From Candidatus Sigynarchaeum calidifontis (GTDB lineage Archaea > Asgardarchaeota > Lokiarchaeia > Sigyniarchaeales > Sigyniarchaeaceae), in the NCBI GenBank assembly GCA_030587475.2, contig JAUQYZ020000135.1, forward strand, positions 1 through 45,689: a DNA stretch of 45,689 nt. The letters run 5' to 3'. Both the position numbers and the translations under genes were made by a program. This document shows, in pieces, positions 7,437-25,194 of this stretch (positions within the stretch are counted from its first letter, which is position 1; each line of letters starts with the position of its first letter). The notes under the pieces were generated by a model, which was given only the letters and a program-made list of their open reading frames with translations, was not told the DNA's origin and did no database searches.

Positions 7437-9602
7437 TCAATCCAAATCATCCGCGCGTGAAGATCCCTTGGCGAACCGAACCGGCGCGAAAAGATACCTT
7501 GCCCTCTCCTCGTCCTTTTTTATCCCTGTCAAAGGATTACCTCGCAAATCAAGCAGCCGGAGTTTCGCCAGGTGTAGCAAGTTCCCCAATGAGTCGATCT
7601 GGTTGCCGCTCGCGAGGAACTCGCGCAAGTGGGGCATGGTGTCGATTTCCCTGGTGTTTTTCAAGTAGTTGTTGTGCACGTCGACGTGGGACACGGCGGG
7701 GAAGTTGCTGATCCCCTTCAGCGCGCCCAGGTTGTTGTCCGACAAGTCGAGCCGCTCGACGCTCGGGATGGTCGTGTCGTTCTCCAGCTTGACGATCCCG
7801 TTCCCGTTCAAGAATAAAACCTTCAGTCGCTCCATGGCGGGACAATCTTGCAAGTTGTCGAGCTTGTTCCATGCGAGATTCACGGAATCAAGTTTCTGGC
7901 AAGTATCGAGTCCTTTTATTTGCGACATCTTGGTGAACTGGTTCCGGGATAAGTCGAGCACCTCTAAACCCCCGCGAGCAAAGGTAACATCCACGTTTTT
8001 CAAGTTGTTGCAGTGGAGATCCAGGAAATGCACGGGGACTTTCTTGCCAGACGGTTCGAAGTTGGTGAGCAAGTTCCGGGACAGGTCCAGGCACCGCAAG
8101 TCTGGCCAGGTTCCAAGCGACTCGACATTCTTGATCGCGTTATTTGAAAGATCCAAAAACTTGAGCTTGGATAATTCATTGATCGCTGGCGGGATCTCCC
8201 TTAACCGGATCCCGGATAAGCCGATACCGGTGATGCTTCCTTTGTGCAGCATGATCCAGGGTATTTTTTTGAATTCTGGTGGTAACAGCGGGAGAACCGG
8301 TGGCGGCTGCCCGCAATCGAGCACGTGGACGACCGGCAGGGCAGGATCCTTGGGAGGAAGGATCACGGCGAGCGCGTCGACGACGCCACGAGGAACGCCC
8401 ATTTGTTCAAGGGCATCGAGATTCACCTCGCGTCGTTGTTTCCCAGCCGCATCACCATCAAGAACCAGCCCCTGCCAGACTTCCCCGAATTGGACGAGCT
8501 CCTCGCTCGTTATCATTGTCTTGCGGGCGGCATCCAGTTGCTTCGTGATGATGCCCTTTATCTTGTTGACCTTCTCACGATCGAGGGCAGTGTCGGAGAT
8601 TCGCTTTTTCCACGACGTGAACTGGCGATCCAACGCCCACGGGTTCGCCATCTTGAGGTAGGCAAGCACCTTTGAAGCGATGTCCCCGGCTTGCTTATCT
8701 TTCTGCATCCGCTCCCGCAGTAATTCCTCCCTTTCCGTGTCATCAAGCTTGACGCGAGCTGGGCGTTTCGATGCCGGCGTCGTTCGCAAGGTATACAAGC
8801 GCAAGAAAAAATTGGCGTGGACAACTCGCATGTCTCGATTGATGAACGTGGCGACAGTATCGCGATCCATTAACCCGAGCAAATCGAGGACATCATCTCC
8901 CTTGTCTTCGGACATGCTTCCCGCGCGGAGCAGCGCGTCGACGAGCATCGGTTGCTTGCCGTTTCGCGTCAAGAAATCATCAAACACGCGCCGTTTACTC
9001 GCGATGCTACATTCTTTGAGGATGGACGCGCTTTTATGAATCAACCACGCGTGACCTGTCGGGTCATTACAAAGAAGCATCTCGGCAATGGCAAGGGCAC
9101 GCCTTGCCCAGTCGACGTAATCGAGTTGCTTTTCCACGATATCCATGAAGATGTTCGTGAACGAAATCGCACCCAGGGATCCAACGAAACTTGCAAGGAT
9201 TCTCGTGAGCCAGTTGTCCCCGGCTCGTCGCGAGATCGCGTCAACACCGTTGTCCGTGAGAACCAGCTGTAAATTCGTCAGCGGGAGAAATTTCTTGAGA
9301 ACCCGCTCGACAACCACCTTTGTATCCGCTCCTTGGAACAATTGCCAGTTATCGGGGTGTAACAGCACGAATAGCGCCTTGCACTTGTCCAAGATGATGT
9401 CATGGATGCCTGGACGAAGCATTTGCTCGGCAACCTTGTTACCATCCTTGTTGTCGATAACATTCCCTGACGAGTCGAGGATGGTTTCGGTCCCTCCTGC
9501 CCTCCACGTTATTGCTTTATTGAGCACGATACCAAATGGCCGGTCCACATCGGGCTTTATATCTTCGAGATCCTTCCGGATGAGGTCGGCGAGGGAAGCC
9601 AT
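7437..9602 (-). CDS. Leucine-rich repeat protein (helical N-terminal region, C-terminal SDS22-like LRR solenoid)
   Basis: About 10 LxxLxLxxNxL repeats (LKFLDLSNNAI, LRCLDLSRNLL, LEVLDLSRNQF, LRLLDLRGNPL); start may lie up to 9653. Confidence 0.88.
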   Translation of the reverse strand: MASLADLIRKDLEDIKPDVDRPFGIVLNKAITWRAGGTETILDSSGNVIDNKDGNKVAEQMLRPGIHDIILDKCKALFVLLHPDNWQLFQGADTKVVVERVLKKFLPLTNLQLVLTDNGVDAISRRAGDNWLTRILASFVGSLGAISFTNIFMDIVEKQLDYVDWARRALAIAEMLLCNDPTGHAWLIHKSASILKECSIASKRRVFDDFLTRNGKQPMLVDALLRAGSMSEDKGDDVLDLLGLMDRDTVATFINRDMRVVHANFFLRLYTLRTTPASKRPARVKLDDTEREELLRERMQKDKQAGDIASKVLAYLKMANPWALDRQFTSWKKRISDTALDREKVNKIKGIITKQLDAARKTMITSEELVQFGEVWQGLVLDGDAAGKQRREVNLDALEQMGVPRGVVDALAVILPPKDPALPVVHVLDCGQPPPVLPLLPPEFKKIPWIMLHKGSITGIGLSGIRLREIPPAINELSKLKFLDLSNNAIKNVESLGTWPDLRCLDLSRNLLTNFEPSGKKVPVHFLDLHCNNLKNVDVTFARGGLEVLDLSRNQFTKMSQIKGLDTCQKLDSVNLAWNKLDNLQDCPAMERLKVLFLNGNGIVKLENDTTIPSVERLDLSDNNLGALKGISNFPAVSHVDVHNNYLKNTREIDTMPHLREFLASGNQIDSLGNLLHLAKLRLLDLRGNPLTGIKKDEERARYLFAPVRFAKGSSRADDLD

Positions 9603-9713
9603 GGTAGTATCACCAGATCGCGAAGGATGCATCGTCGCGTTGTTTGATAACAAGTGTTCGTCCGCTTCGTCAACGAAAAATGGAGGGTAGGATGATTACA
9701 GGTTTCTCGTGGA

Positions 9714-11866: not shown

Positions 11867-12114
11867 ACTCTCATCAAGGGAGGGATGTTCTTGAAGTTCG
11901 ATATTATATCGAGACCTCACGTTGCACGCCCCGATACCAAGCGCGAAGCACGGTTGTTCTCAGAAAGTACCCCGCACGACGCGGATTTTAAGTAAAGAAG
12001 GTACAACCTACTTTTCATGTCATAAAAGGTTTTATTCATTGCGCGGATTCGATCACTTGGTATTAGCATTTTGAACGAGTTAACAACGAGCGAAGGTGAT
12101 TACCCGCACGACCA

Positions 12115-12144
12115 TTTCCCGCCGGTTGCCAGCCGGGCGGGAAA
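12115..12144 (+). promoter_or_regulatory. GC-rich hairpin about 75 nt upstream of hdrA(Sec)
   Basis: TTTCCCGCC-GGTT-gcc-AGCC-g-GGCGGGAAA inverted repeat. Confidence 0.5.
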
Positions 12145-12218
12145 GGAAAGTGCATGTCGATCAAGATCACGAATAGCTGCCCCATGAATTCTCACCGGTA
12201 ACGTTCAGGGAAGCAAAT

Positions 12219-14297
12219 ATGAGTGAAAAGAAAGCAAAAGCTGGTAATATCGAAGCGAAAGCCGAAGCAAAAACTGAAGCGAAACCAGCCGCAGCCGAAG
12301 CGAAACCAGCCGCAGCCGAGGAGAAACCTGCCGAGATAGGTGTTTTCGTGTGCAATTGCGGTATCAACATCGCAGGGGTGGTAAACATTGCAGATACCGT
12401 CGAAGCTGCAAAGAAGATGCCTGGCGTGAAATATGCCGAGAACAACCTTTCCTATTGCACCGAGGCCGGCGCCGTCGCCATCCAGAAGGCAATCGATGAG
12501 TACAAGCTCAAGCGCGTCGTCATCGCTGCTTGCACCCCCAAGACGCATTTACCCGTGTTCCAGAGCGTCCTCAAGGCGGCCAATCTCCCGAAGCGCATGC
12601 TCGAGTTCGTGAACCTTCGCGAGCAAGACGCGTTCGTTCACATGCACGACAAGGACAAGGCGACGGAGAAGGCAAAATCTCTTATCGCAGCTGCAGTGGA
12701 GCGTGCCAAGAACCTCGAGGACATCCCGACCGAGATCGTGGACGTCACCAGGAAGGCACTCGTCATCGGTGGCGGTGTTGCTGGACTCCAGGCAGCGCTC
12801 GACCTCGCGAAGTTGGAATACGACGTGACCCTCGTGGAGAAGACCCCCACAACTGGCGGGAAGATGGCAAAGCTGGACAGGACATTCCCGACCGACGATT
12901 GTTCGATCTGAATATTGGGGCCGATCATGCTCGAGGCGAACCGGAACCCGAAAATCAGGACCTTGACCTACTCGGAAATCGAAGGGTTCTCCGGGTTCGT
13001 CGGAAACTTTGACGTGCGCATCCGGAAGAAGGCTCGATATACAACAAGCAAATGCAATGGATGCGGCGCTTGTTTCGACGTATGCCCCGCGTATCGACCC
13101 CATGACTTCGAATACGGCATGGCCCAGTCCAAGGCGATCTATAAATCCTTCGCGCAAGCAGTTCCCGGCGTCGTTCAAATCGACAAGCAATATTGCATCG
13201 ATTGTGGTCTCTGTGCCAAAGCTTGCGAATTGCAAGCGATCGATTACAACCAGAAAGATGAAATAATCGAGGAGCGATTTGGCGTGGTCGTTGTTGCCAG
13301 CGGGTTCACCGAATACTTGCCTCCAGTTGGCACACTCGGTTTCGGCGAATACGAAAACGTGATCACGCAAGGGCGACTGGAACGCATCCTTGCGCCGAAC
13401 GGCCCGACAGTAGGCCATCTCGTGCGCCCGAGCGACGGGAAGCATCCCACGCGTATTGCCTTCATTCAATGCGTCGGTTCGCGAGATACGCAGTCTAATC
13501 CGCATTGTTGCACGACTGGCTGCCTGCTTTCAGTCAAGAACTCGAAACTTATCAAGCAGCACTACCCCGATACAGAGGTTTACGTGATATTCATGGACCT
13601 CAGGTGCACGGGTAAGATGTCTGAAGAGTATTCCATGGCCACGCGCCAGGAAGGCGTCCACTTCATCCGGTCGAATATTGGCCGTGTATGGGAGGATCCG
13701 AAAACCAAGAATATCGTGCTACGTTTCGAGGACACGATGAATCCAGGCGTGCTCCAGAAGCTCGAGGTTGATCTGCTCGTTCTCACGACGAACATGGTGC
13801 TCGGCGAGGATGGCACGAAACTTGCCAAGATGCTGAAGCTTGACATGTCGCCCGACGGTTTTATGAAGGAATACCACGCGCGCCTCGACCCGATATCGAC
13901 CAAGATCCCCGGCATCTTCCTCGCGGGCACGTGCCAATCGCCAATGACAATCGCCGAGAGCATCGGTCACGCGAAGGGCGCCGCGTCCAGCGCGGCTCGC
14001 ATCTTGCAAGCCAGGAAGTACGAGATCGAGCTCATCCGGGCAGTCGTCGAGAAGCAAGAAGCGTGCTCGAAGTGCTATCGATGCGTGGAGGCGTGCCCGT
14101 ATAACGCGATCTCGATCGATGAGAACGGGAAGATAACCGTCGACGTGATCCTGTGCAAAGGATGCGGGACTTGCTCGAACGTGTGCCGCTCGCAAACGAT
14201 CCAGCTTCGATATTACCGGGATCCCGGCTACGATGGCCAGATCGACGCACTTTTCGCGTCGGTCGTGCCTCAAGAAATGAAGGACTCGAGCAAATGA
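12219..14297 (+). CDS. hdrA: Heterodisulfide reductase subunit A, selenocysteine-containing (UGA at 12909-12911, codon 231; 692 aa)
   Basis: Track ORFs 12219..12911 and 12915..14297 are in the same frame and join as FPTDDCSI-U-ILGP, matching FPTNDCSL-C-ILAP in the paralogue at 20615; CNCGINI, AACTP, GGGVAG, QCVGSR and ferredoxin motifs; SECIS downstream. Confidence 0.93.
12276..12317 (+). repeat. Exact 21-bp tandem duplication (EAKPAAA x2) in the Ala/Lys/Glu-rich N-terminal extension of HdrA
   Basis: gaagcgaaaccagccgcagcc at 12276-12296 and 12297-12317. Confidence 0.9.
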
Positions 14298-14353
14298 GTC
14301 GTGCGCCCAAAGGCAGCGCGCACGATGATGGAGGCAGCAAGCCTTTCTCGAGT
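14284..14353 (+). ncRNA. Eukaryote-type SECIS element (cis-acting mRNA structure) overlapping the hdrA stop codon
   Basis: AUGAG (14294-98)/UGAU (14326-29) tandem G.A core; perfect 8-bp helix UCGUGCGC/GCGCACGA; apical AAA (14309-11); basal helix ACUCGAG/CUCGAGU. Confidence 0.85.
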
Positions 14354-14431
14354 ATATTCCTATCAATAGAAAACCATGCCAGGTCGGCGACGGCCTGGCA
14401 ATCACGATTATAATTGCATCATCAGTAATAC

Positions 14432-14458
14432 CATCAAATTCATCACATTCATCAAATG
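14432..14458. repeat. 9-bp imperfect tandem repeat x3 just upstream of the frhB-like gene
   Basis: CATCAAATT CATCACATT CATCAAATG. Confidence 0.6.
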
Positions 14459-14465
14459 AACCAAC

Positions 14466-15542
14466 ATGAGCAAGGTAATAGTGAAAAAGGGCGACCAGCC
14501 CAATTTTAAAAAGATCATTTCAGAGGTTCTTGATAAAAACAAGTGTTGCGATTGCGGGATTTGCCAGTCAGTTTGTTTTCTTGCTGGAGCTGGAGTGATC
14601 AAGTACGAACGACCTGCCTACCGCGTATACGACGATGAAAAGTGCGTCCGGTGTGGATTTTGCCAGGCTGCTTGCCCCGTGACCTCCTACGACACCAGCG
14701 AATCTGATCACCGGGTCTTCCGGGGTCATGTCGGAAATTACTTGAGTATCCGCTCGTTCACGTCAAAGATCGAGGGTGTCGCCGAGCGGGCGCAAGACGG
14801 GGGTGCCGTGACCAGCATCTTGCTTTACATGATCGACAACCACGTCGTTGATGCGGTTATGGTCACCAAGCACTTGCAAGGATGGGAGCCATCGTCTTTT
14901 CTCACGAAAAATCGTGATGAAATTATCGCGTCTGCGGGAAGCAAGTATGCAACCAACCCCGTGTTCAAGGCGATCACATCGCTCAAGGATCTTCCGCCTG
15001 CGGAAGTGGCCAAGTACGGCGTGAAAAAAATCGACGATCTCCGCATCGCGGTCGTGGGCTTGCCGTGCCAGATATCGGGCCTCACGAAGGTGCAAAATCT
15101 CGGCATCTTTCCGGCGAATCTCATCAAGATCAAGATCGGCCTGTTTTGCTTCAAGAATTATAACTGGATTCGTTTTCAAGAGTTCCTCACGAAAAAACTC
15201 AAGATCAAGCTCGATGATATCAAGAAGATCCGGATTCTCGGGGACATGACCATCACCCTCACCAATGGAAAGGTTTTAACGGTTAAATCCAAGGATTACG
15301 ACAACCTGGTGAACGAGGGATGTGCCTGGTGCAAGGATCTCACGGCGCACGACGCGGACATCTCTTGCGGGAATATCGGTTCCAAGGAGGGGGCCACGAC
15401 CGTCGTCGCGCGCACGAAGAAAGGGCTCGAGATCGTCGACCGCGCGCGGATTGCTGGTTACATGGACGACGCGGGGGTCGTGAACGTGAAGGAAGTGACC
15501 AAACAAGCCCGGATGAAGCTGGACCGGGCAAAGACGGAGTGA
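14466..15542 (+). CDS. Coenzyme F420 hydrogenase/dehydrogenase beta subunit family protein (FrhB/FdhB/FpoF-like) with N-terminal 2x[4Fe-4S] ferredoxin domain
   Basis: CCDCGICQSVC and CVRCGFCQAACP; QDGGAVT, AGSKY, VGLPCQ, IGLFC, GCAWCKD...ADISCG. Confidence 0.9.
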   Translation: MSKVIVKKGDQPNFKKIISEVLDKNKCCDCGICQSVCFLAGAGVIKYERPAYRVYDDEKCVRCGFCQAACPVTSYDTSESDHRVFRGHVGNYLSIRSFTSKIEGVAERAQDGGAVTSILLYMIDNHVVDAVMVTKHLQGWEPSSFLTKNRDEIIASAGSKYATNPVFKAITSLKDLPPAEVAKYGVKKIDDLRIAVVGLPCQISGLTKVQNLGIFPANLIKIKIGLFCFKNYNWIRFQEFLTKKLKIKLDDIKKIRILGDMTITLTNGKVLTVKSKDYDNLVNEGCAWCKDLTAHDADISCGNIGSKEGATTVVARTKKGLEIVDRARIAGYMDDAGVVNVKEVTKQARMKLDRAKTE

Positions 15543-15552
15543 ATGATGCGAC

Positions 15553-16764
15553 ATGACCGAAATACCATCCGCCGTTCAAGATAACTTGCAGAAAGACTAT
15601 GCATCCTTACAAAAGCGAACGCTTCTCTGTTACCAATGCTCGAAATGCACGTCGGTATGCCCGGCATTCCGTATCAACCAGTTCAACCCGCGAAGCTTCA
15701 TCCTCGCGGCCGTGACTGGGGGTATCGACGCCGCCTCGAGGGATGCGACCATATGGGGCTGCCGGAATTGCTCGTCATGCCAGATCTGCCCGATGGGCAT
15801 CGATATCCCGAGCATGGTCCTGCTCGCACGCCTCCATTCGCTCAAGCACAACAACGCACCCCCGGCAGCAAAGATTGGCCATCGTCGTATCTTCAATCTC
15901 GCTCAAAAAATACAAGCAGCATCTCCCGTTCCTCCGGTCGTGAACAAGTGGCCCCTCAACCATCAAAAATTCACCGAAAAGGGCAAGATCGCCCTTTACA
16001 CCGGGTTGATGCCGATCTGGGACAACTTGATGTACAACTACGACCTCAACTTCGTTACCGGCTTGCGTGCCATCCTCGAGGCGATGAACATGGTTGGCGT
16101 TGAACCGGCTATCCCGGCTGGTATCAAGGACAGCGGGCACGACGTTTACTACGGCGGCGACGAGACGACCTTCATCACGTTGGCTCGTTACAACCTCGAC
16201 GTGGTCGAGAAACTCGGCATCGAAACGCTTGTCGTGGTTAATCCCGAGGATTACCACGTCATGAAACACTTGTACCCGAAATACCTCGGCTCGATGGCGC
16301 CCGATGTCGTTTTTTGGACAGATTTCCTCGTGGAGAATGGTTTCGTCGAGAAGCTGAGGTACCAAGCGTACCTTGACATCGAAATTCACGCGGCCTACCA
16401 TGATCCTTGCAAGCTCGGGCGCAGAAGCAAAATATTCGATTCGCCAAGAACGATCCTCGAAAACGTGCCCGGGGTCAAGCTCGTGAAATTCAAGGACGAG
16501 AAAGAACTCGCCCCTTGCTGCGGGGTCACTGCATTCATCGGCTGCGATGATGGATCGCTTTACTTGCGGCACGAGCGCCTCAGGGAAGCGCGCGATATCG
16601 GTGTAGACGTGCTCGTGACGACGTGCCCCTCCTGCGTGTCGCACTATTCCTGCGCCCTCGCATCGCTCCCCCCTCCCAAGGAAGCCCAAGAAGCAAAGCC
16701 CTTGCAAGTGACTGAGCTGGGCACGTTCCTGGGGACGCGACTATTCCATTTCAACAGCAAATAA
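15553..16764 (+). CDS. HdrC/HdrB-like fusion (HdrD-type Fe-S oxidoreductase) with only the second CCG domain intact
   Basis: CYQCSKCTSVCP and CRNCSSCQICP; C-terminal HDPC...CCG...TCPSC; first CCG domain has no Cys. Confidence 0.85.
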   Translation: MTEIPSAVQDNLQKDYASLQKRTLLCYQCSKCTSVCPAFRINQFNPRSFILAAVTGGIDAASRDATIWGCRNCSSCQICPMGIDIPSMVLLARLHSLKHNNAPPAAKIGHRRIFNLAQKIQAASPVPPVVNKWPLNHQKFTEKGKIALYTGLMPIWDNLMYNYDLNFVTGLRAILEAMNMVGVEPAIPAGIKDSGHDVYYGGDETTFITLARYNLDVVEKLGIETLVVVNPEDYHVMKHLYPKYLGSMAPDVVFWTDFLVENGFVEKLRYQAYLDIEIHAAYHDPCKLGRRSKIFDSPRTILENVPGVKLVKFKDEKELAPCCGVTAFIGCDDGSLYLRHERLREARDIGVDVLVTTCPSCVSHYSCALASLPPPKEAQEAKPLQVTELGTFLGTRLFHFNSK

Positions 16765-16810
16765 GCAAGTTAACTCGTGATAATTCCTTTCAACGCTAAC
16801 CGGGTTCAAG

Positions 16811-19800
16811 ATGGCAAAACCGATCAAGAAAAACCTCCTCCCCTCGGATGATCTCTTCAACATATCCGACGCGGTGCTCGTGGTCGGCAGCGGGGCCGCC
16901 GGGATCCAGGCAAGTTTAGACCTATCACGACTTGGTGCAAGGGTTATCCTCGTCGAACGCGGTAAAAACATCGGCGGGCTCATCGCGAAGCTCGATAAGA
17001 CATACGCCACGCACGATTGCGCCGGGATAAATGCCCTCTATTCCATTCAAGACGCTTGGGGGAAAAAATGCTTGCAAATGCAGCACGGGGCATGCGGCAA
17101 GTGCCATATGGCCACGCAAACATACAATAACGCAAACGTGAAGATTTACCAGAATTCCGTGGTCTCGGCCATCGATTATCTCGACGAGGGGAACATCCGC
17201 GTCACGATCGAGAAGCAGGTCCTCGGCATTGACGAAGAGCGGTGCACTAATTGCGGGGCTTGCTACGAGGTATGCCCTGTACGGTTTGACGAAGACATCA
17301 ACTGGTTCGATGCGGGCCTCGGTACGAGGCGGGCTGTGAACACGCCTTTCCCCGGTGCAGTCCCTCCCACGCATTCGATAGAGCACGACAGATGTATCTA
17401 CGTGCAGAATGGTCTTTGCGGGAAATGCAAGGATATATGCCCCACGAATGCCGTTACATTCGAGTTTAAGAAGGAGCTGCACGAGTTCACGGTCGGGGCG
17501 ATCATCTTCGCCACGGGTGCCAACCAAGCGCACCCGTTCGACTACGACAAGTTTCTCGGCCACCATCCCGACGTCTTGAATGGCCTACAGTACGAGCGGC
17601 TTGCCAGCGAGAATGGCCCGACCAAGGGAAACATCATCAAGCTCTCCAACCACAAGCCTGCCAAGCGCATCGCGTTCGTCCAGTGCGTCGGTTCCAGGAA
17701 CACGCGTCCTGGCGGCATGCCATACTGCAGTACCGTGTGTTGCATGTATGCTATCAAGGAAGCCGACATGGCCAAGGAGAAAGATCCATCGTGTGAAACT
17801 TATATCTTCAACGTCGAGAACCGGGCTTATTTAAAAGGTTTTCACGAGTATTATCTCCGCGCCAAGCGAGATCACGGCGTGAAATTCATCCAGGGACGCG
17901 TTGCCAGCGTTCGTAAAGATATAAAAACTGATGATTTGATAGTCGAATACGAGGACGTCGAAGCTGGCGAGATCAAGTCAATGCCCGTCGATCTCGTGGT
18001 TCTCTCGACTGCTCTGATCCCGAACGTCGACGGCATCTCGCGGATCCTGGGTGTCCCCTTGAACAAGTACCATTATTTCGACAAGCCCGTCCTCGAGGAT
18101 CTCGAACATAAGGGGATCTATTTCGCCGGCTTTTGCATGCATCCGATGGACATCCCGTCGTCGGTCATCACGGCCGACGCGGCGGTCGCCAAGGTCTCCC
18201 GGCGGTTGTTCCACGCCCTCAAGGCCAAGCAGCAAGAACCGGGCGAGGTCGTCGACGAGATCAAGCTCTACGGGACTCCACGCATCGGCGTGCTCGCGTG
18301 CCAGTGTGACAAGGAATCCGCGAGGGTGTTAAATAATGAAGCCATCATCAGCGCGATCCGGAACATTCCCGGGGTCGTTGCCGTCGAAGCTAGCGTATTC
18401 GACACGTGTACCGAGTCCCGATCCTTCCTAGCCAAGATGATAAAGGAACACCGGCTCAACCGAGTCGTGGTCGGCGCGTGCTCGCCCAGGACATACGGCT
18501 CCATCTTCACCGAGGCCGTCAAGGAGGCGAAGTTGGATCCGAACTTGCTTGAAATGGTCAATATCAGGGAACAAGCCGCGTGGGTTCATCAAAACGAGCC
18601 TGAAGCAGCCACGAAAAAGGTTATCGATCTCCTGGCGATGGGAGTTGCGAAAAACCGGGAGCTCACGTATCAAGAAAACAAGAAAGTGCCAATGACAAAG
18701 GCAGTGCTCGTGATTGGCGGTGGTCCCGCTGGTATCGTCGCCGCGGACAATATCGCGAGCCAGGACATAAAGGTATACCTCGTCGAGCGGGAAAACAAGC
18801 TCGGCGGCGCGACGAACAAGATTTCCCGCAAGTTCTTGTTCGACGACGAGCAAGTCATCATCGACAAGATCGAAGCAATCGTCGCCCGGTTTCCAAAGAA
18901 CAAGAACATCGAAGTGCTCACGAAATCAAGAGTTGTCGGCGTTTCTGGCTTCGTGGGTAACTTCCAGGTGCGGATCGACGCTGCTGGTGTAGAGAAAAAT
19001 GTCCGTGTCGGCTGCATCATCGTCGCGACAGGCGCGTCGCAAGATCCAAACTATGCCAACGTGGTACAAGGAAAGTCAGATCGCGTGTTCAACCAGGAGC
19101 AGTTCGAGCAGTTGCTCATCAAGGGCGACCTTCAAGGCATGAAGAAATTCGCGTTCATCCAATGCACGAACCAGCGGGCCGATGGCAACATCAAGCCCGA
19201 GTTCAAGAACTGTTCCGGCATTTGCTGCAAGATCACGCTCAAGCAAGCCATCAAGATCAAGGATCTGGTGCCCGATGCCGAGATACACATCATCCAACGC
19301 GGCATGCAACTGTCGGGCGAGGTGTATTACGAGGACATTCACCACCAGGTGCAATCATTCGCCGCGATCGAGCGGTACTCCCCCGAGCAATACCCGAAGA
19401 TCATCGCCGCGGGCGACAAGGTTCGCGTCTCGTTCCGGGAGCGCAACGTCGGCGAGCAGCTCGACCTCGATCTCGATGCCGTGATCCTCGCTACGCCTTA
19501 CAGATCAGCGCCTGGCACCCAAGAGCTCGGTGCCTTGCTAAAGGTGCCCGTGATGCAAGCCGGGTTCTTTTTAGAGGCGCACGTGAAGTTTCGGCCAAAT
19601 GATTTCGTCGTTGACGGCATGTTCCTCGCCGGGGATGCCCATTGGCCGAAGACCATGATAGATGCCGTCTCGCACGGTCTTGCGTCGGCCGCGCGTGCCA
19701 GTGCATTCTTGACACGTGGTTACGTGGAAATCGAGGGCACGGTCGCTAGTGTGGACGAAAACGCGTGTATCGGTTGCAAGAAATGCCAGGATGCATGCCC

Positions 19801-20023
19801 ATTCGACGCCATCGACATGGTCAGCGTGCCGCGCGAGATCGAGGGGCAAATCGTGAGCGTGCTCAAGGCGCGGGTGAACGAAGTTCTTTGTAAAGGCTGC
19901 GGTACGTGCACGGGCGGTTGTCCGACGCACGCTATAGACCAAATGAACTTGAAGACCGACCAGATTTCCGGAATGATCAAGATCTTGTTTCCCGTGTTTG
20001 ATGCCACGAAAGTCGAGAATTAA
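16811..20023 (+). CDS. hdrA: Large HdrA-family protein with two FAD-binding modules (1070 aa)
   Basis: VGSGAAG and IGGGPAG motifs; QCVGSR..YCSTVCC and QCTNQR..NCSGICC; internal CQC/GACSP domain; inserted and C-terminal ferredoxins. Confidence 0.9.
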   Translation: MAKPIKKNLLPSDDLFNISDAVLVVGSGAAGIQASLDLSRLGARVILVERGKNIGGLIAKLDKTYATHDCAGINALYSIQDAWGKKCLQMQHGACGKCHMATQTYNNANVKIYQNSVVSAIDYLDEGNIRVTIEKQVLGIDEERCTNCGACYEVCPVRFDEDINWFDAGLGTRRAVNTPFPGAVPPTHSIEHDRCIYVQNGLCGKCKDICPTNAVTFEFKKELHEFTVGAIIFATGANQAHPFDYDKFLGHHPDVLNGLQYERLASENGPTKGNIIKLSNHKPAKRIAFVQCVGSRNTRPGGMPYCSTVCCMYAIKEADMAKEKDPSCETYIFNVENRAYLKGFHEYYLRAKRDHGVKFIQGRVASVRKDIKTDDLIVEYEDVEAGEIKSMPVDLVVLSTALIPNVDGISRILGVPLNKYHYFDKPVLEDLEHKGIYFAGFCMHPMDIPSSVITADAAVAKVSRRLFHALKAKQQEPGEVVDEIKLYGTPRIGVLACQCDKESARVLNNEAIISAIRNIPGVVAVEASVFDTCTESRSFLAKMIKEHRLNRVVVGACSPRTYGSIFTEAVKEAKLDPNLLEMVNIREQAAWVHQNEPEAATKKVIDLLAMGVAKNRELTYQENKKVPMTKAVLVIGGGPAGIVAADNIASQDIKVYLVERENKLGGATNKISRKFLFDDEQVIIDKIEAIVARFPKNKNIEVLTKSRVVGVSGFVGNFQVRIDAAGVEKNVRVGCIIVATGASQDPNYANVVQGKSDRVFNQEQFEQLLIKGDLQGMKKFAFIQCTNQRADGNIKPEFKNCSGICCKITLKQAIKIKDLVPDAEIHIIQRGMQLSGEVYYEDIHHQVQSFAAIERYSPEQYPKIIAAGDKVRVSFRERNVGEQLDLDLDAVILATPYRSAPGTQELGALLKVPVMQAGFFLEAHVKFRPNDFVVDGMFLAGDAHWPKTMIDAVSHGLASAARASAFLTRGYVEIEGTVASVDENACIGCKKCQDACPFDAIDMVSVPREIEGQIVSVLKARVNEVLCKGCGTCTGGCPTHAIDQMNLKTDQISGMIKILFPVFDATKVEN

Positions 20024-20034
20024 GGGGATAACAA

Positions 20035-20457
20035 ATGGGCAAAAATCAATATAAACCGAAGATATTGGCATTTTGCTGCAATTGGTGCTCGTACGCGGGC
20101 ATCGACGTCGCGGGGCTCACGCGCGCCCAGTACCCCGCGTCGATACGGTTGGTCAAGGTCATGTGCATCGGCAGGATCCATCCGGATCTCGTGCTCGAAG
20201 CATTCGCCCGGGGGGCAGATGGCGTCCTCGTCGTTGGCTGCAACGTCGGTGATTGCCATTACTTGCACGGTAATCAATTGGCGACCGAACGAATGGCGGA
20301 GATGGGTAATCTGCTTGAAGGCATTGGTCTCGATCACCGGCGCATCAAGATCGGGTATATCTTCGCTTACGAGGGCAAGAAATTTTCCGAACTCGTGACC
20401 GAATTTACCGACGGGATTTCTGCCCTTGGACCGAACGTGATCAAGGTCGCCACGTGA
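20035..20457 (+). CDS. mvhD: MvhD/VhuD/FlpD [2Fe-2S] adaptor subunit
   Basis: FCCNWCSYAG, VMCIGR, GADGVLVVGC..GDCHY..GN. Confidence 0.93.
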   Translation: MGKNQYKPKILAFCCNWCSYAGIDVAGLTRAQYPASIRLVKVMCIGRIHPDLVLEAFARGADGVLVVGCNVGDCHYLHGNQLATERMAEMGNLLEGIGLDHRRIKIGYIFAYEGKKFSELVTEFTDGISALGPNVIKVAT

Positions 20458-20614
20458 AACCCTTCTGATCCATGCTCGATATTTTTAATAAATCTGGACT
20501 TGAATGTTTTTATTGAACATGAAATTGTAAAGCATAGCACGAAAGCGTACAAAAAACCAGCTCTTCGTACTCCTTTCACGATCCACGAATTCACGAACAA
20601 TCATCGCGAGGAAC

Positions 20615-23600
20615 ATGTCGGCTAAACCTGGCAGCAACGTGCCGAAGTCTGGCGAGGTCCTGGTCGTGGGAATGGGCGTCGCGGGCATTCAAGCGAGCCT
20701 TGACCTGACACGCCTTGGATTCCACGTCACCGCAGTTGAAAAGGGGAAAACCATCGGAGGAATAATGGCCCAGCTCGATAAGACTTTCCCCACGAACGAT
20801 TGTTCACTTTGTATTCTGGCTCCAAAAATGGTCGAAGTATATCGCGATCCGAACATCACGCTTTACCAAAATACCGACATCAAGAAGATTGAATATCTGC
20901 CGGATGGAAACATAAAAGTATTTCTCGAAAAACAGAACATGGGCATTAACGAGGCAGCGTGCAAGAACTGCGGCGAATGTAACAAGGTATGCCCCATCCA
21001 ATACGACGAGCCCATCACGTGGTTCGACGCTGGCCTCGCGCGCCGCAAGGCGGTCAACATCCCGTTTCCATCCGCGGTTCCCCCCGTGTATGCCATCGAG
21101 AAAAACCGGTGTTTAAAAGCCAAGCACAACGCGTGTGGCAAATGCCAGGCCGCTTGCCCATCCAACGCAATCACCTATGATTTCAGCGTTCAAACAATCG
21201 AGCTCGTCGTCGGCGGCATCATCTTCGCGACCGGTTGCACGCCCATGGAACCCAAGCGATTCCCGCGGTTCCTCGGTGGCCACCCCGACGTTCTCAGCAG
21301 CATCCAGTTCGAGCGGCTCATGTGCGCGAGCGGGCCGACCGGCGGCGAGATCATCAAGCGCTCCAACAAGAAGCACGCGAACCGCATCGCATTCATCCAG
21401 TGCGTCGGCTCCCGCTCGAAACGCCCCGGCGAGCTCGAGTATTGCTCGTCGGTCTGCTGCATGTACGCGATGAAGGAGGCGCAAATTACCAAGGAACACG
21501 ATCCCCACGTCGAGTGTTACATCTTCAATCCCGAGAACAGGGCCTGTGCCAAGGGCTTCCACGAGTATTTTTTGCGGTCCAGGAATGAATACGGGGTAAA
21601 ATTCATGCCTGGCCGCGTGTCCCGTGTTCATGATTTCAAGGATTCACCAGATCTTGCCGTGGAATTCGAAGACGACATCACCGGCGAGCCCGCCGAGCTG
21701 CGCGTCGACCTGGTCATCCTCGCAACGGGACTCGTCCCGAACACGCAAGATGTCTCGAAAGTGCTCGGCATCGGCTTGAACAAGTACGGGTATTTTGACA
21801 CCCCGGTCATCGAGGACCTCGAATCGAAGGGGATCTATCTCGCCGGTTATGACATCAAGCCCATGGACATCCCGCTATCGGTCGTGTCCGGCAGCGCGGC
21901 AGCGGCGAAGGTCTCGCGGCGTTTACACGCTGCCCGGTTTTCACGCATTGTCACGCCGAAACTACCCAAGGAAAAAAAGGTGACAAGCGCGGACGAACCG
22001 CGGATCGGCGTGATGGTATGCCACTGCGGTATCAACATCGGGCGCACGATCGACTGCGAGCGCGTGGCCAAGGAGATCGCTAAAGTGCCCAACGTCGTCG
22101 TGGCTGATCACAACAATTACACGTGTAGCTCCGATTCGCAAGTCACGATCAAGAACATGATAACCGAGCATAACTTGAACCGGTTCATCGTGGCATCATG
22201 TACGCCGAGGACACACGAGGCGTTGTTCCGTGGCACGCTGCAAGAAGCGGGCCTGAACCCGTACTTGTTCGACCTCGTCAACATCCGGGAACACGCGTCG
22301 TGGGTGCACATGACCGAGCCACAAGCCGCGACGGAGAAGGCCATCGAGCTCATCAAGATGAGCATCGGCAAGGTACGGGAACTCGGTCCCCAGCAGAAAA
22401 AACAAATAAAAATAACCAAGTCCGTGCTCGTCATCGGTGGCGGCCCAGCGGGATTGTTCGCTGCGGATAACCTGGCAAATCAAGAATTTGACGTGTTTCT
22501 CGTCGAGAAGGAAGCCATGCTTGGCGGGGCGACCAGGACGTTCACCCGCAAGTTGCTGCTCCCCGACGAGAGGCTCGCGATCAACCGCATGGAAGGGATA
22601 ATTCAGCAACTTGGAGGAAATCCACGCGTGCGGATCTTCTTGAATTCACGCGTGGTGGACGTGTCCGGCTTCGTTGGCAATTACAAGGTCAAGATCGCGC
22701 ATGACGGCAAGATTGAAGAGGTCGACATCGGCGGCATCATCGTCGCCACCGGCGTGGCCCAGGATCCGAATGTCGCCATCGCGACGAGGGCTTCTTCCCC
22801 GCGCATCTTCACGCAAGAGCAATTCGAGCACGTGTTGGACGAAGGCAAGCTCGATGGCATCAAGCGCGTCGGGTTCATCCAATGTTCAGGCCAGCGCCAC
22901 GATGGAAGCATAACTTCCGATTTTCCGAACTGTTCCGGGATCTGCTGCAAGATCACGCTCAAGCAAGCGAAGCTCATGCGGCAGCTCGAGCCCGACGCGA
23001 GCATCTATATAATGCAACGTGGGATGAATCTCAGCGGGGACGTGGAGAATGAGGCTCTCTTCCAGGATGTGCAGCGATATGCTGGCGTGGCACGGTATGA
23101 TCCTTCAGAATACCCTGATATCAAGGTGGTAGGGAAGGAATTGCATGTTACATTCAAGGAGCGGAATTCGAGCGAGCAGCTCGACTTGGCCCTCGATGCG
23201 GTCGTGCTGGCCACCCCGTACAAGTCGGCAGCCGGCACGAAGGACCTCGCCATGCAGCTCAAGGTGCCCGTGACCCAGGATGGTTTCATGCTCGAGGCAC
23301 ACGTGAAACTGCGCCCCGTGGACTTCGCAACCGAGGGTATCTTTGTTGCCGGCGGGGCACAATGGCCCAAAGCCTTGGAAGATGCCATTTTACAAGGTAT
23401 CGCCGCTTCAGGCAGAGCAATTGGCTTGCTCGCAAAGGGATTTGTCGAAGCCGAAGGAATCACTGCAGAAGTCGACGAGTCCATGTGTATCGGGTGTCGG
23501 AAATGCGAGTCGGTATGCCCGTACAAGGCCATCGAGATGGTACCACGTGAATCCATCATCGACATGGAACGCGTGACGGTCTATAAAGCCCACGTGATCG

Positions 23601-23785
23601 ATGCAATGTGCAAGGGTTGCGGCACGTGCGCGGCCAACTGCCCGACAAAGGCAATAGACCAGCGTCACTTCAAGAATTCCCAGGTCTTGAGCATGATCAA
23701 GGCGCTATTCGATAACGACGAAGCATGCGAGTGCTGCGCGCAGCAACCCGTTCCCGCGAACGGCAATGGAGGCGATTCTTCTTGA
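20615..23785 (+). CDS. hdrA: Large HdrA-family protein with two FAD-binding modules (1056 aa), paralogue of 16811..20023
   Basis: VGMGVAG, FPTNDCSLCILAP, QCVGSR..YCSSVCC, CHCGINI, ASCTP, IGGGPAG, NCSGICC, C-terminal ferredoxin, CECC tail. Confidence 0.92.
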   Translation: MSAKPGSNVPKSGEVLVVGMGVAGIQASLDLTRLGFHVTAVEKGKTIGGIMAQLDKTFPTNDCSLCILAPKMVEVYRDPNITLYQNTDIKKIEYLPDGNIKVFLEKQNMGINEAACKNCGECNKVCPIQYDEPITWFDAGLARRKAVNIPFPSAVPPVYAIEKNRCLKAKHNACGKCQAACPSNAITYDFSVQTIELVVGGIIFATGCTPMEPKRFPRFLGGHPDVLSSIQFERLMCASGPTGGEIIKRSNKKHANRIAFIQCVGSRSKRPGELEYCSSVCCMYAMKEAQITKEHDPHVECYIFNPENRACAKGFHEYFLRSRNEYGVKFMPGRVSRVHDFKDSPDLAVEFEDDITGEPAELRVDLVILATGLVPNTQDVSKVLGIGLNKYGYFDTPVIEDLESKGIYLAGYDIKPMDIPLSVVSGSAAAAKVSRRLHAARFSRIVTPKLPKEKKVTSADEPRIGVMVCHCGINIGRTIDCERVAKEIAKVPNVVVADHNNYTCSSDSQVTIKNMITEHNLNRFIVASCTPRTHEALFRGTLQEAGLNPYLFDLVNIREHASWVHMTEPQAATEKAIELIKMSIGKVRELGPQQKKQIKITKSVLVIGGGPAGLFAADNLANQEFDVFLVEKEAMLGGATRTFTRKLLLPDERLAINRMEGIIQQLGGNPRVRIFLNSRVVDVSGFVGNYKVKIAHDGKIEEVDIGGIIVATGVAQDPNVAIATRASSPRIFTQEQFEHVLDEGKLDGIKRVGFIQCSGQRHDGSITSDFPNCSGICCKITLKQAKLMRQLEPDASIYIMQRGMNLSGDVENEALFQDVQRYAGVARYDPSEYPDIKVVGKELHVTFKERNSSEQLDLALDAVVLATPYKSAAGTKDLAMQLKVPVTQDGFMLEAHVKLRPVDFATEGIFVAGGAQWPKALEDAILQGIAASGRAIGLLAKGFVEAEGITAEVDESMCIGCRKCESVCPYKAIEMVPRESIIDMERVTVYKAHVIDAMCKGCGTCAANCPTKAIDQRHFKNSQVLSMIKALFDNDEACECCAQQPVPANGNGGDSS

Positions 23786-24273
23786 ATGCAAAGGCCGCGA
23801 CGACGGTGGATCATGGCACGGACAAGCGAGTCGTGAACGAGAACAAGAATGGATGCCCCCCGACTGAATGGCAGCCGAAAATCCTCACCTTCGCGTGTAA
23901 CTGGTGTTCTTATGCCGGGGCGGATCTCGCCGGGGTATCTCGGTTCCAGTATCCCCCGTCGATCCGCATCTTGCGCGTCATGTGCAGCGGACGCGTCCAT
24001 CCGGACATGGTTCTCGAAGCTTTCGGACACGGTGCGGACGCAGTACTCGTTACAGGCTGTCATATTGGAGATTGCCATTATATCTCCGGAAATCAATACA
24101 CCAAAAGCCGGATGGCCCTGGTTCCCCAAATGCTCGAGGCGATAGGTGTGGATCCCCGGCGTTTCAAGCTGGATTGGGTCTCGGCATCGGAAGGAAAGAA
24201 ATTTTCCGAGCTCATCAAGTCTTTCACAGCACAAATCAAGGAACTCGGCCCGCTGAAGATGAAAATTGCTTGA
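23782..24273 (+). CDS. mvhD: MvhD/VhuD/FlpD [2Fe-2S] adaptor subunit, second copy (start uncertain: TTG 23782, GTG 23806 or GTG 23833)
   Basis: FACNWCSYAGAD, VMCSGR, GCHIGDCHY, WVSASEG. Confidence 0.92.
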   Translation: MNAKAATTVDHGTDKRVVNENKNGCPPTEWQPKILTFACNWCSYAGADLAGVSRFQYPPSIRILRVMCSGRVHPDMVLEAFGHGADAVLVTGCHIGDCHYISGNQYTKSRMALVPQMLEAIGVDPRRFKLDWVSASEGKKFSELIKSFTAQIKELGPLKMKIA

Positions 24274-24291
24274 TCCTTGTTTTTGGATTAA

Positions 24292-24468
24292 AAAAAGGTC
24301 ATCGTGGTTATCAATAGCCGGGAGATCGCGGCAACCGTGAGAACAAACCCGCTGGTGTTCGTGTTCGAGCACACGACCGTGAACCCTTATTTGGCCCCGA
24401 TATTCGAGATAGTCGTGATCCAGTTCATGATCTTGAAGCTCGCACGGAAGATGGACATGACCGCGTGA
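24292..24468 (+). pseudogene. C-terminal remnant of a SIS-domain (GlmS/FrlB-like) sugar-phosphate protein
   Basis: Unlisted frame KKVIVVINSREIAATVRTNPLVFVFEHTTVNPYLAPIFEIVVIQFMILKLARKMDMTA*, resembling the SIS C-terminal L.P....P.Q.LA..LA helix; in-frame TAA at 24289 directly upstream. Confidence 0.5.
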
Positions 24469-24507
24469 TCGATGCGTTCAAGTAGGAAAAACACGTAGGA
24501 CGGATTG

Positions 24508-25194
24508 ATGACTGCCCCCACCGCCGAAAAAAAGCATCGAATCCCGCGCGCCTTCCAGCTCGATGGCCATCGATCCCGGTTCGCCTACTTCTTTCTCGCG
24601 CTCGTCGTGGTGCTTGCCATGCGCATGCTCGAGAACACCATGCACGAATACGCGCACGTCGTATTCGTATTGTTGTCCGGGGGCGAGGTCGTGGGCTTGC
24701 CTCTGGTCACCCCCTTCGGCGGCTTCACCAGGTGGCGTGGCGACACGGTACCCGTGGCGTGGCTCCCCGCCGTCAACATCGCCGGGACCCTGGTATCCGT
24801 GGTCGTTTTGCTCGCCATCTTCTTGCCGGTTTATTTTAAGGCCAAGCAGCCGTGGATGCGATGGTTTGCATACTGGGGCGCGTGCATCGTTCCTGTAAAT
24901 TCATTATTCTATTGGTTTATGGCTCCGTTCATCGCGACCGCGCAGCATTACGATCCGATCGCGTTCGCTGCTAATGTCGGGATCTCTCCCCCTTGGATCG
25001 TCGGCGTCATCGCCGCGGTTCCTTTTTCCATCGCGGCATGGTGGATGGTGAAGGGCACCCGCTCAATACGCTCCGGCATCTTGCTGGATCCGCATCGATT
25101 CCACGTGTTTTGCCTGGTCTTGTATTACATCATCTCGATCGGCTTTCCCGTCGTTTCCTACTTGAACTTGCTCGACCGGTTCGCGTTCTGGTAG
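24508..25194 (+). CDS. Membrane HExxH metallopeptidase-like protein (M50-like), copy 1
   Basis: MHEYAH within a TM region, GGFT, NIAG, distal YDP; ~6 TM. Confidence 0.75.
   Translation: MTAPTAEKKHRIPRAFQLDGHRSRFAYFFLALVVVLAMRMLENTMHEYAHVVFVLLSGGEVVGLPLVTPFGGFTRWRGDTVPVAWLPAVNIAGTLVSVVVLLAIFLPVYFKAKQPWMRWFAYWGACIVPVNSLFYWFMAPFIATAQHYDPIAFAANVGISPPWIVGVIAAVPFSIAAWWMVKGTRSIRSGILLDPHRFHVFCLVLYYIISIGFPVVSYLNLLDRFAFW

Follow-up and report, generated by a model that had tools for sequence, protein, structure and literature searches.

A hydrogenase-free, candidate F420-coupled row of HdrA-type genes in the Asgard archaeon Candidatus Sigynarchaeum calidifontis

Seven co-oriented genes form an Hdr-type row without a hydrogenase

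We analyzed a 45,689-nt contig of Candidatus Sigynarchaeum calidifontis (the window, by which we mean this whole stretch of DNA) and observed that seven co-oriented genes at 12219-24273 of the + strand probably specify a hydrogenase-independent, F420-coupled system of the HdrA type. This system would carry out flavin-based electron bifurcation or, in the reverse direction, confurcation, and its modules are all of known kinds. It would resemble Elp-Hdr on the input side (PMC12350162) and BamDEF in the core and on the output side. From the sequences and by analogy with characterized complexes, we put the probability of this reading at about 60%. What was observed in its favour is the family membership of the proteins, their cofactor motifs, the conserved gene order and the F420 genes carried by the host genome.

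A preliminary description of the window had named seven co-oriented genes of these kinds, and all of them were present. The row runs as follows, in this order (lengths in amino acids, aa; Sec, selenocysteine; SECIS, selenocysteine insertion sequence; FAD, flavin adenine dinucleotide).

12219-14297, + strand: Sec-HdrA, 692 aa; NCBIfam HdrA2, 704 bits; in-frame TGA at 12909-12911
14294-14328, + strand: candidate lokiSECIS; AUGA, 9-bp stem, 11-nt A-rich loop, GA
14466-15542, + strand: FrhB/ElpB-like F420 oxidoreductase module (putative), 358 aa; Pfam PF04432, 6.5e-36, and PF04422, 8.6e-19
15553-16764, + strand: HdrD/BamD-like fused HdrC/B protein, 403 aa; Pfam CCG, 5.6e-16; NCBIfam TfrB, 97 bits, and HdrC, 47 bits
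16811-20023, + strand: fused double HdrA no. 1, 1070 aa, BamE-type; three HdrA stretches against 5odc_A
20035-20457, + strand: MvhD no. 1, 140 aa, [2Fe-2S] connector; Pfam FlpD, 1.2e-47; NCBIfam VhuD, 116 bits
20615-23785, + strand: fused double HdrA no. 2, 1056 aa, BamE-type; NCBIfam HdrA2, 850 bits, three stretches
23782-24273, + strand, open frame from 23725: MvhD no. 2; Pfam FlpD, 2.9e-53, residues 53-175 of the 182-aa frame

Along the row the intergenic gaps measure 168, 10, 46, 11 and 157 nt; between the last two genes there is an overlap instead. The four genes from frhB to mvhD no. 1 (frhB-ccg-hdrAA1-mvhD1) are separated by 10, 46 and 11 nt, MvhD no. 1 starting 11 nt after the fused HdrA no. 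1.

We scanned the larger open reading frames (ORFs) of the window for other redox partners. No hydrogenase, FdhA/formate dehydrogenase, NuoF/Flx, AOR, MetF or electron-transfer flavoprotein (ETF) was matched among them, nor was any ElpA/FdhA-type subunit. The earlier statement that the cluster has no mvhA/mvhG, fdhA or flx gene was thus borne out, both for the row itself and for the scanned ORFs of the window. The BamBC tungsten enzyme and the BamGHI NADH/ferredoxin module were not found among the annotated ORFs, in a search that covered the window only.

The genome to which the window belongs, as contig C153, measures 4.99 Mb in 269 contigs and is 88.95% complete and 5.18% contaminated. Its closest named relative is a metagenome-assembled genome (MAG) of the same genus, 'Promethearchaeota archaeon', with 85% identity across fused HdrA no. 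1. No match to McrA was obtained in this 89%-complete genome, and the control methanogens were matched; this agrees with the previous assignment of the host as a probable non-methanogen.

The FrhB-like protein is a putative F420 module

The FrhB-like protein consists of an N-terminal 2x[4Fe-4S] ferredoxin domain followed by the FrhB N and C domains, which account for FAD and [4Fe-4S]. Its best solved relatives, 8rja_E (2.4e-39, residues 14-357) and 8riu_B (residues 19-344), align with it from end to end. These two are the FwdI and ACDS-zeta subunits, which were found experimentally to deliver electrons to F420 (PMC11493965). A chain of the Elp-Hdr entry (8rvu_E, titled formate dehydrogenase beta subunit) was matched at 1.1e-16.

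Genes for F420 were also found elsewhere in the genome. CofH scored 451 bits (cut-off 374) and has a CofG-like gene adjacent to it, CofD scored 278 bits (cut-off 257), and the F420-dependent Mtd scored 372 bits; a CofE-like protein was present as well. The F420 link that had been proposed for the cluster is therefore supported by both the cof genes and the end-to-end alignment of the FrhB-like protein. In addition, among 40 relatives (G000 left out of the family counts), FrhB paralogues, counted at E<=1e-40, and CofH co-occur at the family level. They were found in 3/3 and 2/3 genomes, respectively, of family f1, in 22/22 and 20/22 of f4, in 1/1 and 0/1 of f3, and in 0/14 and 0/14 of f2. The f2 counts include three closed genomes, and the co-occurrence rests on few independent lineages.

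It could be argued that the FrhB-like subunit is F420-independent, that is, a flavin/iron-sulfur module fed by ferredoxin or another carrier, in which case the cluster would not be F420-linked. FrhB-family proteins that do not use F420 exist, and the named models for FrhB and FpoF have curated cut-offs that none of the matches of the present protein reaches. However, the full-length alignment and the domain plan are shared with F420-reducing subunits (PMC11493965), the genome carries F420 synthesis genes together with Mtd, and the family-level co-occurrence of FrhB and CofH points in the same direction. We consider an F420-independent module to be highly unlikely.

A complex prediction for the FrhB-like and HdrC/B-like proteins, run without controls, gave a median score of 0.30 against a mark of 0.32, and counts neither way.

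The fused double HdrAs are sister copies, one of which is derived

In each fused HdrA, residues ~18-416 correspond to an FAD core with an inserted ferredoxin domain, residues ~489-722 to an N-terminal domain and the start of a second FAD core, and residues ~918-1060 to the end of that core and a C-terminal ferredoxin domain. Direct reading of each sequence gave two GxGxxG motifs, along with cysteine motifs that would account for seven [4Fe-4S] clusters. Both also have, in the first core, the CCMYA(M/I)K motif with its lysine, equivalent to Lys409 of 5odc_A.

The preliminary description had counted five HdrA-type FAD modules in the row, and by motif the count is correct, since all five Rossmann GxGxxG motifs are present in the HdrA-type proteins. 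The functional weight of these modules is, however, likely to be unequal. BamE is a fused HdrA dimer with seven clusters, in which the bifurcating flavin is found only in the first core, near the lysine and a CxxC pair, and the second flavin is non-bifurcating according to a cryo-electron microscopy preprint (bioRxiv 10.64898/2026.04.10.717634). By analogy with BamE, about three of the five FAD modules would bifurcate, with one such flavin per fused HdrA.

In a tree of 102 fused HdrAs, copies no. 1 and no. 2 came out as sisters with full support, with the next relative from a Hodarchaeota MAG. The branch of copy 1 is longer than that of copy 2 (0.69 versus 0.33). The two fused HdrA-MvhD pairs are 52% (fused HdrAs) and 59% (MvhDs) identical. 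Copy 2 retains the CxxC motif (Cys63, Cys66), has the lysine motif as CCMYAMK, and has 64-89% identical orthologues in a same-genus genome (G001) and in a genome of a second genus (G002). In copy 1, residues ~63-98 (window 16997-17104) are altered; DCAGI replaces the CxxC/U motif, and an insert brings Cys87, Cys95 and Cys98, which make a four-cysteine set with Cys70. This insert is conserved in the same-genus orthologue. Among the HdrA-type genes of the window and of 79 comparison loci, there were 117 real matches to the CxxC/U region, of which 67 were Cys-Cys and 49 Cys-Sec, copy 1 being the sole exception. In the 49 Cys-Sec cases, which belong to the comparison loci, the second position of the motif is a TGA. 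The four-cysteine insert may bind an extra metal centre. As judged from these sequences, copy 1 is the derived form and copy 2 the conservative form. The loss of CxxC/U together with the gain of the four-cysteine insert points to a changed function of copy 1 rather than to an equivalent spare. The earlier notion of interchangeable HdrA cores was not supported by this comparison of two sister paralogues.

Both MvhDs are ~140-160 aa long, have the FlpD domain only, with five conserved cysteines, and contain no in-frame TGA. The 182-aa frame of MvhD no. 2, from 23725, shares its first 61 nt with the preceding gene, fused HdrA no. 2. Its start is probably the TTG at 23782, which forms a TTGA overlap with the stop codon, or the GTG at 23806; the overlap at 23782 suggests translational coupling of MvhD no. 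2.

The presence of two pairs raises the question of whether they are alternative, condition-specific isoenzymes acting on shared FrhB/CCG partners, akin to the Sec/Cys isoforms of methanogens. That the pairs are recent sister paralogues would suit such an arrangement, as would the separate promoter-like AT-rich region 5' of copy 2. However, both copies are Cys forms and hence provide no Sec/Cys backup, copy 1 has lost a motif kept in 116/117 matches and gained the four-cysteine insert, and only one fused HdrA is seen in G002. Exchangeable isoenzymes thus appear to us decidedly unlikely. A Sec/Cys backup pair was rejected, as neither fused HdrA is a Sec form. An ancient heteromer of two paralogues, the pattern seen in Desulfobacterota, was also rejected, since the two copies are sisters here.

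All seven products could also make up one asymmetric, lineage-specific super-complex. Copies 1 and 2 would then form a heterodimeric core, the FrhB-like protein the F420 port and the HdrC/B-like protein the exit to a non-disulfide acceptor, with two bifurcations in series as in class II benzoyl-CoA reductase. We regard such an assembly as unlikely.

The HdrC/B-like protein has lost one of two non-cubane cysteine sets

The HdrC/B-like protein matched HdrC among Protein Data Bank (PDB) entries and also residues 121-240 of HdrB. It has two cubane motifs (Cys26-36 and Cys70-79) and a C-terminal CCG set comprising Cys286, 322, 323, 358 and 361. There are no cysteines between residues 79 and 286, which leaves the first CCG domain free of them. 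The previous label 'hdrC/B-like' needs a correction, in that only one of the two CCG domains has its cysteines.

We compared the conserved cysteine columns in an 11-sequence alignment of HdrC/B-like relatives. The columns of the first CCG domain read L, D, S and N in the window protein and L/T/M, D, S and N across all four genera of family f1, the orthologues from f1 in the alignment being L121:4478-5686, L120:8856-10016 and L123:215-1360 (locus:coordinates). These cysteines are kept in 7/7 of the other sequences, from Hodarchaeota, Promethearchaeota, family f3, Bathyarchaeota, Methanomassiliicoccales and Desulfobacteraceae.

HdrB requires both non-cubane clusters for the reduction of the coenzyme M-coenzyme B heterodisulfide (CoM-S-S-CoB). 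In BamD the second cluster is altered, the substrate pocket is filled, and the acceptor is ETF (bioRxiv 10.64898/2026.04.10.717634). Because one of the two non-cubane sites is lost, and with BamD as a precedent, a non-disulfide acceptor would be expected, and a CoM-CoB-type disulfide is an unlikely acceptor for the HdrC/B-like protein.

The first gene encodes a selenocysteine form of HdrA

Sec-HdrA is of canonical length and has an N-terminal domain, an FAD/thioredoxin-reductase core, an inserted ferredoxin domain and a C-terminal ferredoxin domain, and its best NCBIfam match is HdrA2. Residues 39-680 align with solved HdrA chains (9sfi_A, 1.6e-190; 5odc_A, 9e-183). The single in-frame TGA corresponds to residue 231, which stands opposite the X (Sec) of 9sfi_A and Cys197 of 5odc_A within the motif DCS(I/M)-C/U-IL. 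The same-genus orthologue in G001 has three Sec codons versus one here, with TGA at the residue-231 site and at the equivalents of Cys47 and Cys105; this fits the multi-Sec HdrA pattern known from Lokiarchaeota (PMC4989117).

A candidate lokiSECIS hairpin lies directly on the stop codon of Sec-HdrA, and its AUGA core includes the UGA stop. An Rfam scan of 11900-24700 gave zero matches and no family matching SECIS, and the element was therefore assessed by hand against the published lokiSECIS criteria (PMC4989117), with which it agrees. The hairpin is kept in G001, and in the alignment G002 has a different stem with the pairing preserved. A tRNA-SeC was detected in the genome by ARAGORN. As far as can be read from the DNA, the assignment of Sec to residue 231 holds.

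Stand-alone Sec-HdrA genes with a lokiSECIS of their own were seen at three sites: window 14294-14328, L121 at ~3255-3293 and L093 at ~975-1016 (minus strand).

The gene families recur in further Asgard archaea

Conservation across Asgard genomes, proposed earlier as a check on the cluster, was observed for related rows in G001, G002, families f4 and f3 and a Hodarchaeota MAG, and did not extend to a further genus, G003. In G001 the order HdrA-FrhB-CCG-fused HdrA1 continues up to a contig end, and the other row genes are on two more contigs. In G002, which is 78% complete, HdrA-FrhB and then FrhB-CCG-fused HdrA-MvhD are joined at a contig break inside frhB; the single fused HdrA seen there is directly behind the CCG gene and is 64% identical to copy 2. 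Both copies have relatives in G003 (66% and 68% identity), and therefore the duplication may predate the genus, its counterpart in G002 being unassembled or lost.

In three more of the Asgard lineages sampled (f4, f3 and the Hodarchaeota MAG), we found rows that combine FrhB with a gene of the HdrC or HdrC/B type and with between one and three fused HdrA-MvhD units. Two examples from f4 are L144 (G039:C152), which reads CCG, split fused HdrA, MvhD, fused HdrA, MvhD, FrhB, fused HdrA, MvhD, and L146 (G028:C4), which reads FrhB and then three fused HdrA-MvhD units. A CCG gene directly 5' of a fused HdrA was also found at L002, L007, L013, L022, L056 and L061 and in G002 and G005. In the genomes with the arrays L144, L146 and L147 (G037:C3), fused HdrAs number as many as seven and FrhB paralogues as many as nine per genome, and some of the fused HdrAs occur as two genes split at the junction.

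Full-length fused HdrA is present in 3/3 genomes of f1, 1/1 of f3, 20/22 of f4 and 5/14 of f2, with up to seven per genome. Beyond the Asgard archaea, the fused HdrA+MvhD pair, often doubled, occurs in Desulfobacterota, Bacillota sulfate reducers, Bathyarchaeia, Methanomassiliicoccales and ANME-2c (ANME, anaerobic methanotrophic archaea). In the doubled units of Desulfobacterota, the first and the second copies form old separate clades (loci L004, L006, L014, L015, L034, L036, L039, L052, L058, L065, L076 and L078), which suggests a conserved heteromeric pair there. The overall distribution fits a putative fused HdrA core with exchangeable inlet modules.

Is the row one system or a neighbourhood of separate enzymes?

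Several points weigh against one F420-coupled bifurcating system. Which subunits touch, what the donor and the acceptor are, which way the electrons run and the role of ferredoxin at the low-potential end are all things that we infer. The 168- and 157-nt gaps, with T-tracts, and with AT-rich boxes in the 157-nt one, leave room for three transcription units. In G003 the FrhB-CCG pair stands alone, and the HdrA-type genes with MvhD are ~100 kb or more distant. Family f2 (5/14) has fused HdrA-MvhD units without any FrhB paralogue or CofH found, and therefore this core does not depend on F420. On the side of F420 itself, the CofE-like protein reached only 157 bits, under the curated cut-off, Mer was not found in the genome, and the FrhB family includes the members mentioned above that do not use this coenzyme.

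Alternatively, two or three separate enzymes might share this neighbourhood. Sec-HdrA would then act with partners encoded elsewhere, FrhB-CCG would be a simple, non-bifurcating F420H2:acceptor oxidoreductase, and the fused HdrA-MvhD pairs would serve other donors, for example a [NiFe]-hydrogenase encoded elsewhere in the genome. The isolated pair in G003, the two wide gaps with their T-tracts, and the fused HdrA-MvhD units that are self-standing in many bacteria and archaea, including f2, all speak for such a neighbourhood. The same is true of two [NiFe]-hydrogenase loci and of canonical HdrB genes beside other HdrA genes in the genome. However, the same five gene families recur adjacently in further Asgard families and Hodarchaeota, the gaps from frhB to mvhD no. 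1 are just 10-46 nt, and the loci elsewhere have neighbours of their own, as detailed below. A set of separate enzymes is the main alternative to the single F420-coupled system, and a clearly less probable one.

The only NiFeSe_Hases matches in the genome came from C117 and C158, which each carry one [NiFe]-hydrogenase locus, and the locus on C158 has its own HdrA and MvhD. Canonical HdrB adjoins HdrA on C136 and C175, with an MvhD also on C175. Six further HdrA genes were found in the genome, several of which have their own MvhD and one its own FrhB. The loci elsewhere in the genome are thus not obviously short of a partner and do not explain away the subunits encoded in the window. The possibility, named in the preliminary description, that a standard mvhAG/hdrBC set elsewhere accounts for all the subunits therefore finds no backing in them. 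The MvhAGD-HdrABC complex itself was rejected as an identity of the row, which is without a hydrogenase; the hydrogenase and HdrB loci elsewhere were judged to have their own HdrA.

In G003 the neighbours of the FrhB-CCG pair are thiolase-like genes, an ADP-forming acyl-CoA synthetase and ribophorin-like and glycosidase genes, which give no clue to a substrate. The FrhB frame there (L120:7761-7940) has its N-terminal Cys motif straight after an in-frame TAG, without a preceding ATG, GTG or TTG. Its fused HdrA relatives are partial, a 656-aa frame covering residues 525-1061 of no. 1 and a 762-aa frame covering residues 312-1043 of no. 2, each with an MvhD behind it.

The remaining genes of the window offer no redox partner. 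They encode a subtilase, a leucine-rich-repeat (LRR) protein, a Get3/ArsA-like ATPase, GNAT and M50B-like proteins, a GH20-like protein, a histidine kinase, HAD, a GHMP kinase and the phosphate ABC transporter genes. Upstream of the row, and all on the - strand, are:

60-5654, - strand: subtilase of 1864 aa with a laminin-G-like domain
7437-9653, - strand: leucine-rich-repeat protein of 738 aa
10859-11920, - strand: ArsA/Get3-type ATPase

Proposed path of electrons and its significance

In the F420-coupled system that we favour, the core unit would most likely comprise the frhB-like, hdrC/B-like, fused hdrA and mvhD products. A hydride would pass from F420H2 to the FAD of the FrhB-like subunit. 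The three [4Fe-4S] clusters of that subunit would hand single electrons on to MvhD, at its [2Fe-2S] cluster, and MvhD would deliver them to a fused HdrA, whose first flavin core would contain the bifurcating FAD. The low-potential electron would leave through the inserted ferredoxin domain towards ferredoxin. The high-potential electron would move through the flavin-adjacent cluster to the HdrC/B-like protein and then to the acceptor, which is probably not a heterodisulfide of the CoM-S-S-CoB type; a protein may fill this role, or some other small molecule. The second fused hdrA-mvhD pair would be a lineage-specific duplicate, and Sec-HdrA a conserved neighbour. Physiologically, the system might balance the F420 pool, which is tied to Mtd and the tetrahydromethanopterin (H4MPT) one-carbon pathway, against ferredoxin and a third carrier.

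Many of the parts have already been published, namely Hdr bifurcation fed by F420, fused HdrAs, clusters of FrhB with HdrA, and Sec-HdrA accompanied by a lokiSECIS (PMC12350162, PMC9012536, PMC5296606, PMC4989117). We found no paper on the combination of FrhB, an HdrD-like protein, multiple fused HdrAs and MvhD in Asgard archaea, and none reporting either the CCG variant with one cluster or the copy that lacks CxxC. The suggestion of an undescribed Asgard system is overstated, in that the fused HdrA+MvhD pair is widespread and FrhB-HdrA clusters have been published for ANME (PMC9012536).

How Asgard archaea balance ferredoxin, F420 and hydrogen bears on models of their syntrophic lifestyle and hence on the origin of eukaryotes. 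In one paper, the acceptor of Hdr is still written as an unidentified heterodisulfide (PMC11291895). The present cluster would be a concrete candidate for a hydrogen-independent site of F420/ferredoxin coupling. The family-wide loss of one non-cubane site argues against reduction of a CoM-CoB-like disulfide by this Hdr-type module and narrows the search for the acceptor. More broadly, fused HdrA+MvhD may be a general-purpose core that is given different inlets across anaerobes.

Comparison with known systems

The nearest precedent for the input side is Elp-Hdr of Methanothermobacter marburgensis, (ElpABC-HdrABC)2 (PDB 8RVU/8RVV/8RVY), where electrons pass from F420H2 through a homologue of FrhB and a homologue of MvhD to HdrA without a hydrogenase (PMC12350162). 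It supplies a direct precedent for the MvhD-wired, F420H2-fed scheme of HdrA bifurcation that the preliminary description had proposed. The present row shares with it an FrhB/FdhB-family subunit, an MvhD/ElpC [2Fe-2S] connector and HdrA, again without a hydrogenase. It differs in lacking ElpA, a truncated FdhA, and in having HdrB and HdrC replaced by one fusion with a single non-cubane cysteine set. Moreover, 2/3 of the HdrA-type proteins here are fused double HdrAs, the FrhB-like protein begins with a two-cluster ferredoxin domain, and no McrA match was obtained, so that CoM-S-S-CoB is an unlikely substrate.

The FrhB-like protein is close in size and domain plan to FwdI and ACDS zeta of Ca. 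Ethanoperedens thermophilum (8RJA, 8RIU), which couple a partner enzyme to F420 (PMC11493965). Their partners are, however, formylmethanofuran dehydrogenase and CO dehydrogenase and not Hdr-type proteins.

For the core and the output, we compared the row with BamDEF of Geobacter metallireducens through its published description (bioRxiv 10.64898/2026.04.10.717634). Both have an HdrC/B fusion (BamD), a fused HdrA with two FADs and seven [4Fe-4S] clusters (BamE) and an MvhD-type adaptor (BamF), with the HdrC/B fusion directly upstream of the fused HdrA (46 nt here). Set beside BamE by description, copy 2 has the N-terminal CxxC, and copy 1 has the lysine motif without it. The weakened second non-cubane site of BamD has its like in the HdrC/B-like protein, and a non-disulfide acceptor would be expected for both. 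In contrast, an FrhB-like module stands in the window in place of BamBC and BamGHI, and the fused HdrA-MvhD pair is duplicated. BamF is long and contains Sec, two Rossmann domains and a winged helix, whereas the MvhDs here are of ~140 aa and Cys-only. Class II benzoyl-CoA reductase itself was rejected as an identity, as the window has no BamB/C/G/H/I and MvhD is short.

Sec-HdrA resembles the Sec-HdrA/VhuD pairs of Lokiarchaeota (Mariotti et al. 2016, PMC4989117) in having Sec at the canonical HdrA position. Its candidate element likewise follows the eukaryote-like lokiSECIS plan, with AUGA, a 9-bp stem, an 11-nt loop and GA, and the genus of the window has a multi-Sec orthologue. Unlike those pairs, the HdrA here has no MvhD/VhuD behind it, the next gene being FrhB-like, and it owns its SECIS. 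The published HdrA genes end in UAA or UAG and share one SECIS downstream of VhuD (PMC4989117); the stop here is a UGA inside the AUGA core.

The ANME clusters of FrhB and HdrA without FdhA, for which F420 coupling to bifurcation or confurcation has been proposed (Chadwick et al. 2022, PMC9012536), can be grouped with HdrA2B2C2 of Methanosarcina acetivorans (PMC5296606) as close known systems. The fused HdrA3/HdrA4 of ANME (PMC9012536) are similar in that Cys197 and the N-terminal domain are complementary in their presence, and an ANME-2c fused HdrA aligns over its full length at 36-37% identity. Those systems occur together with Mcr, CoM/CoB and canonical HdrBC, whereas the present row, with its one-cluster HdrC/B fusion, belongs to a non-methanogenic Asgard archaeon. 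Several fused HdrAs are also carried by Thor- and Lokiarchaeota (PMC11237513).

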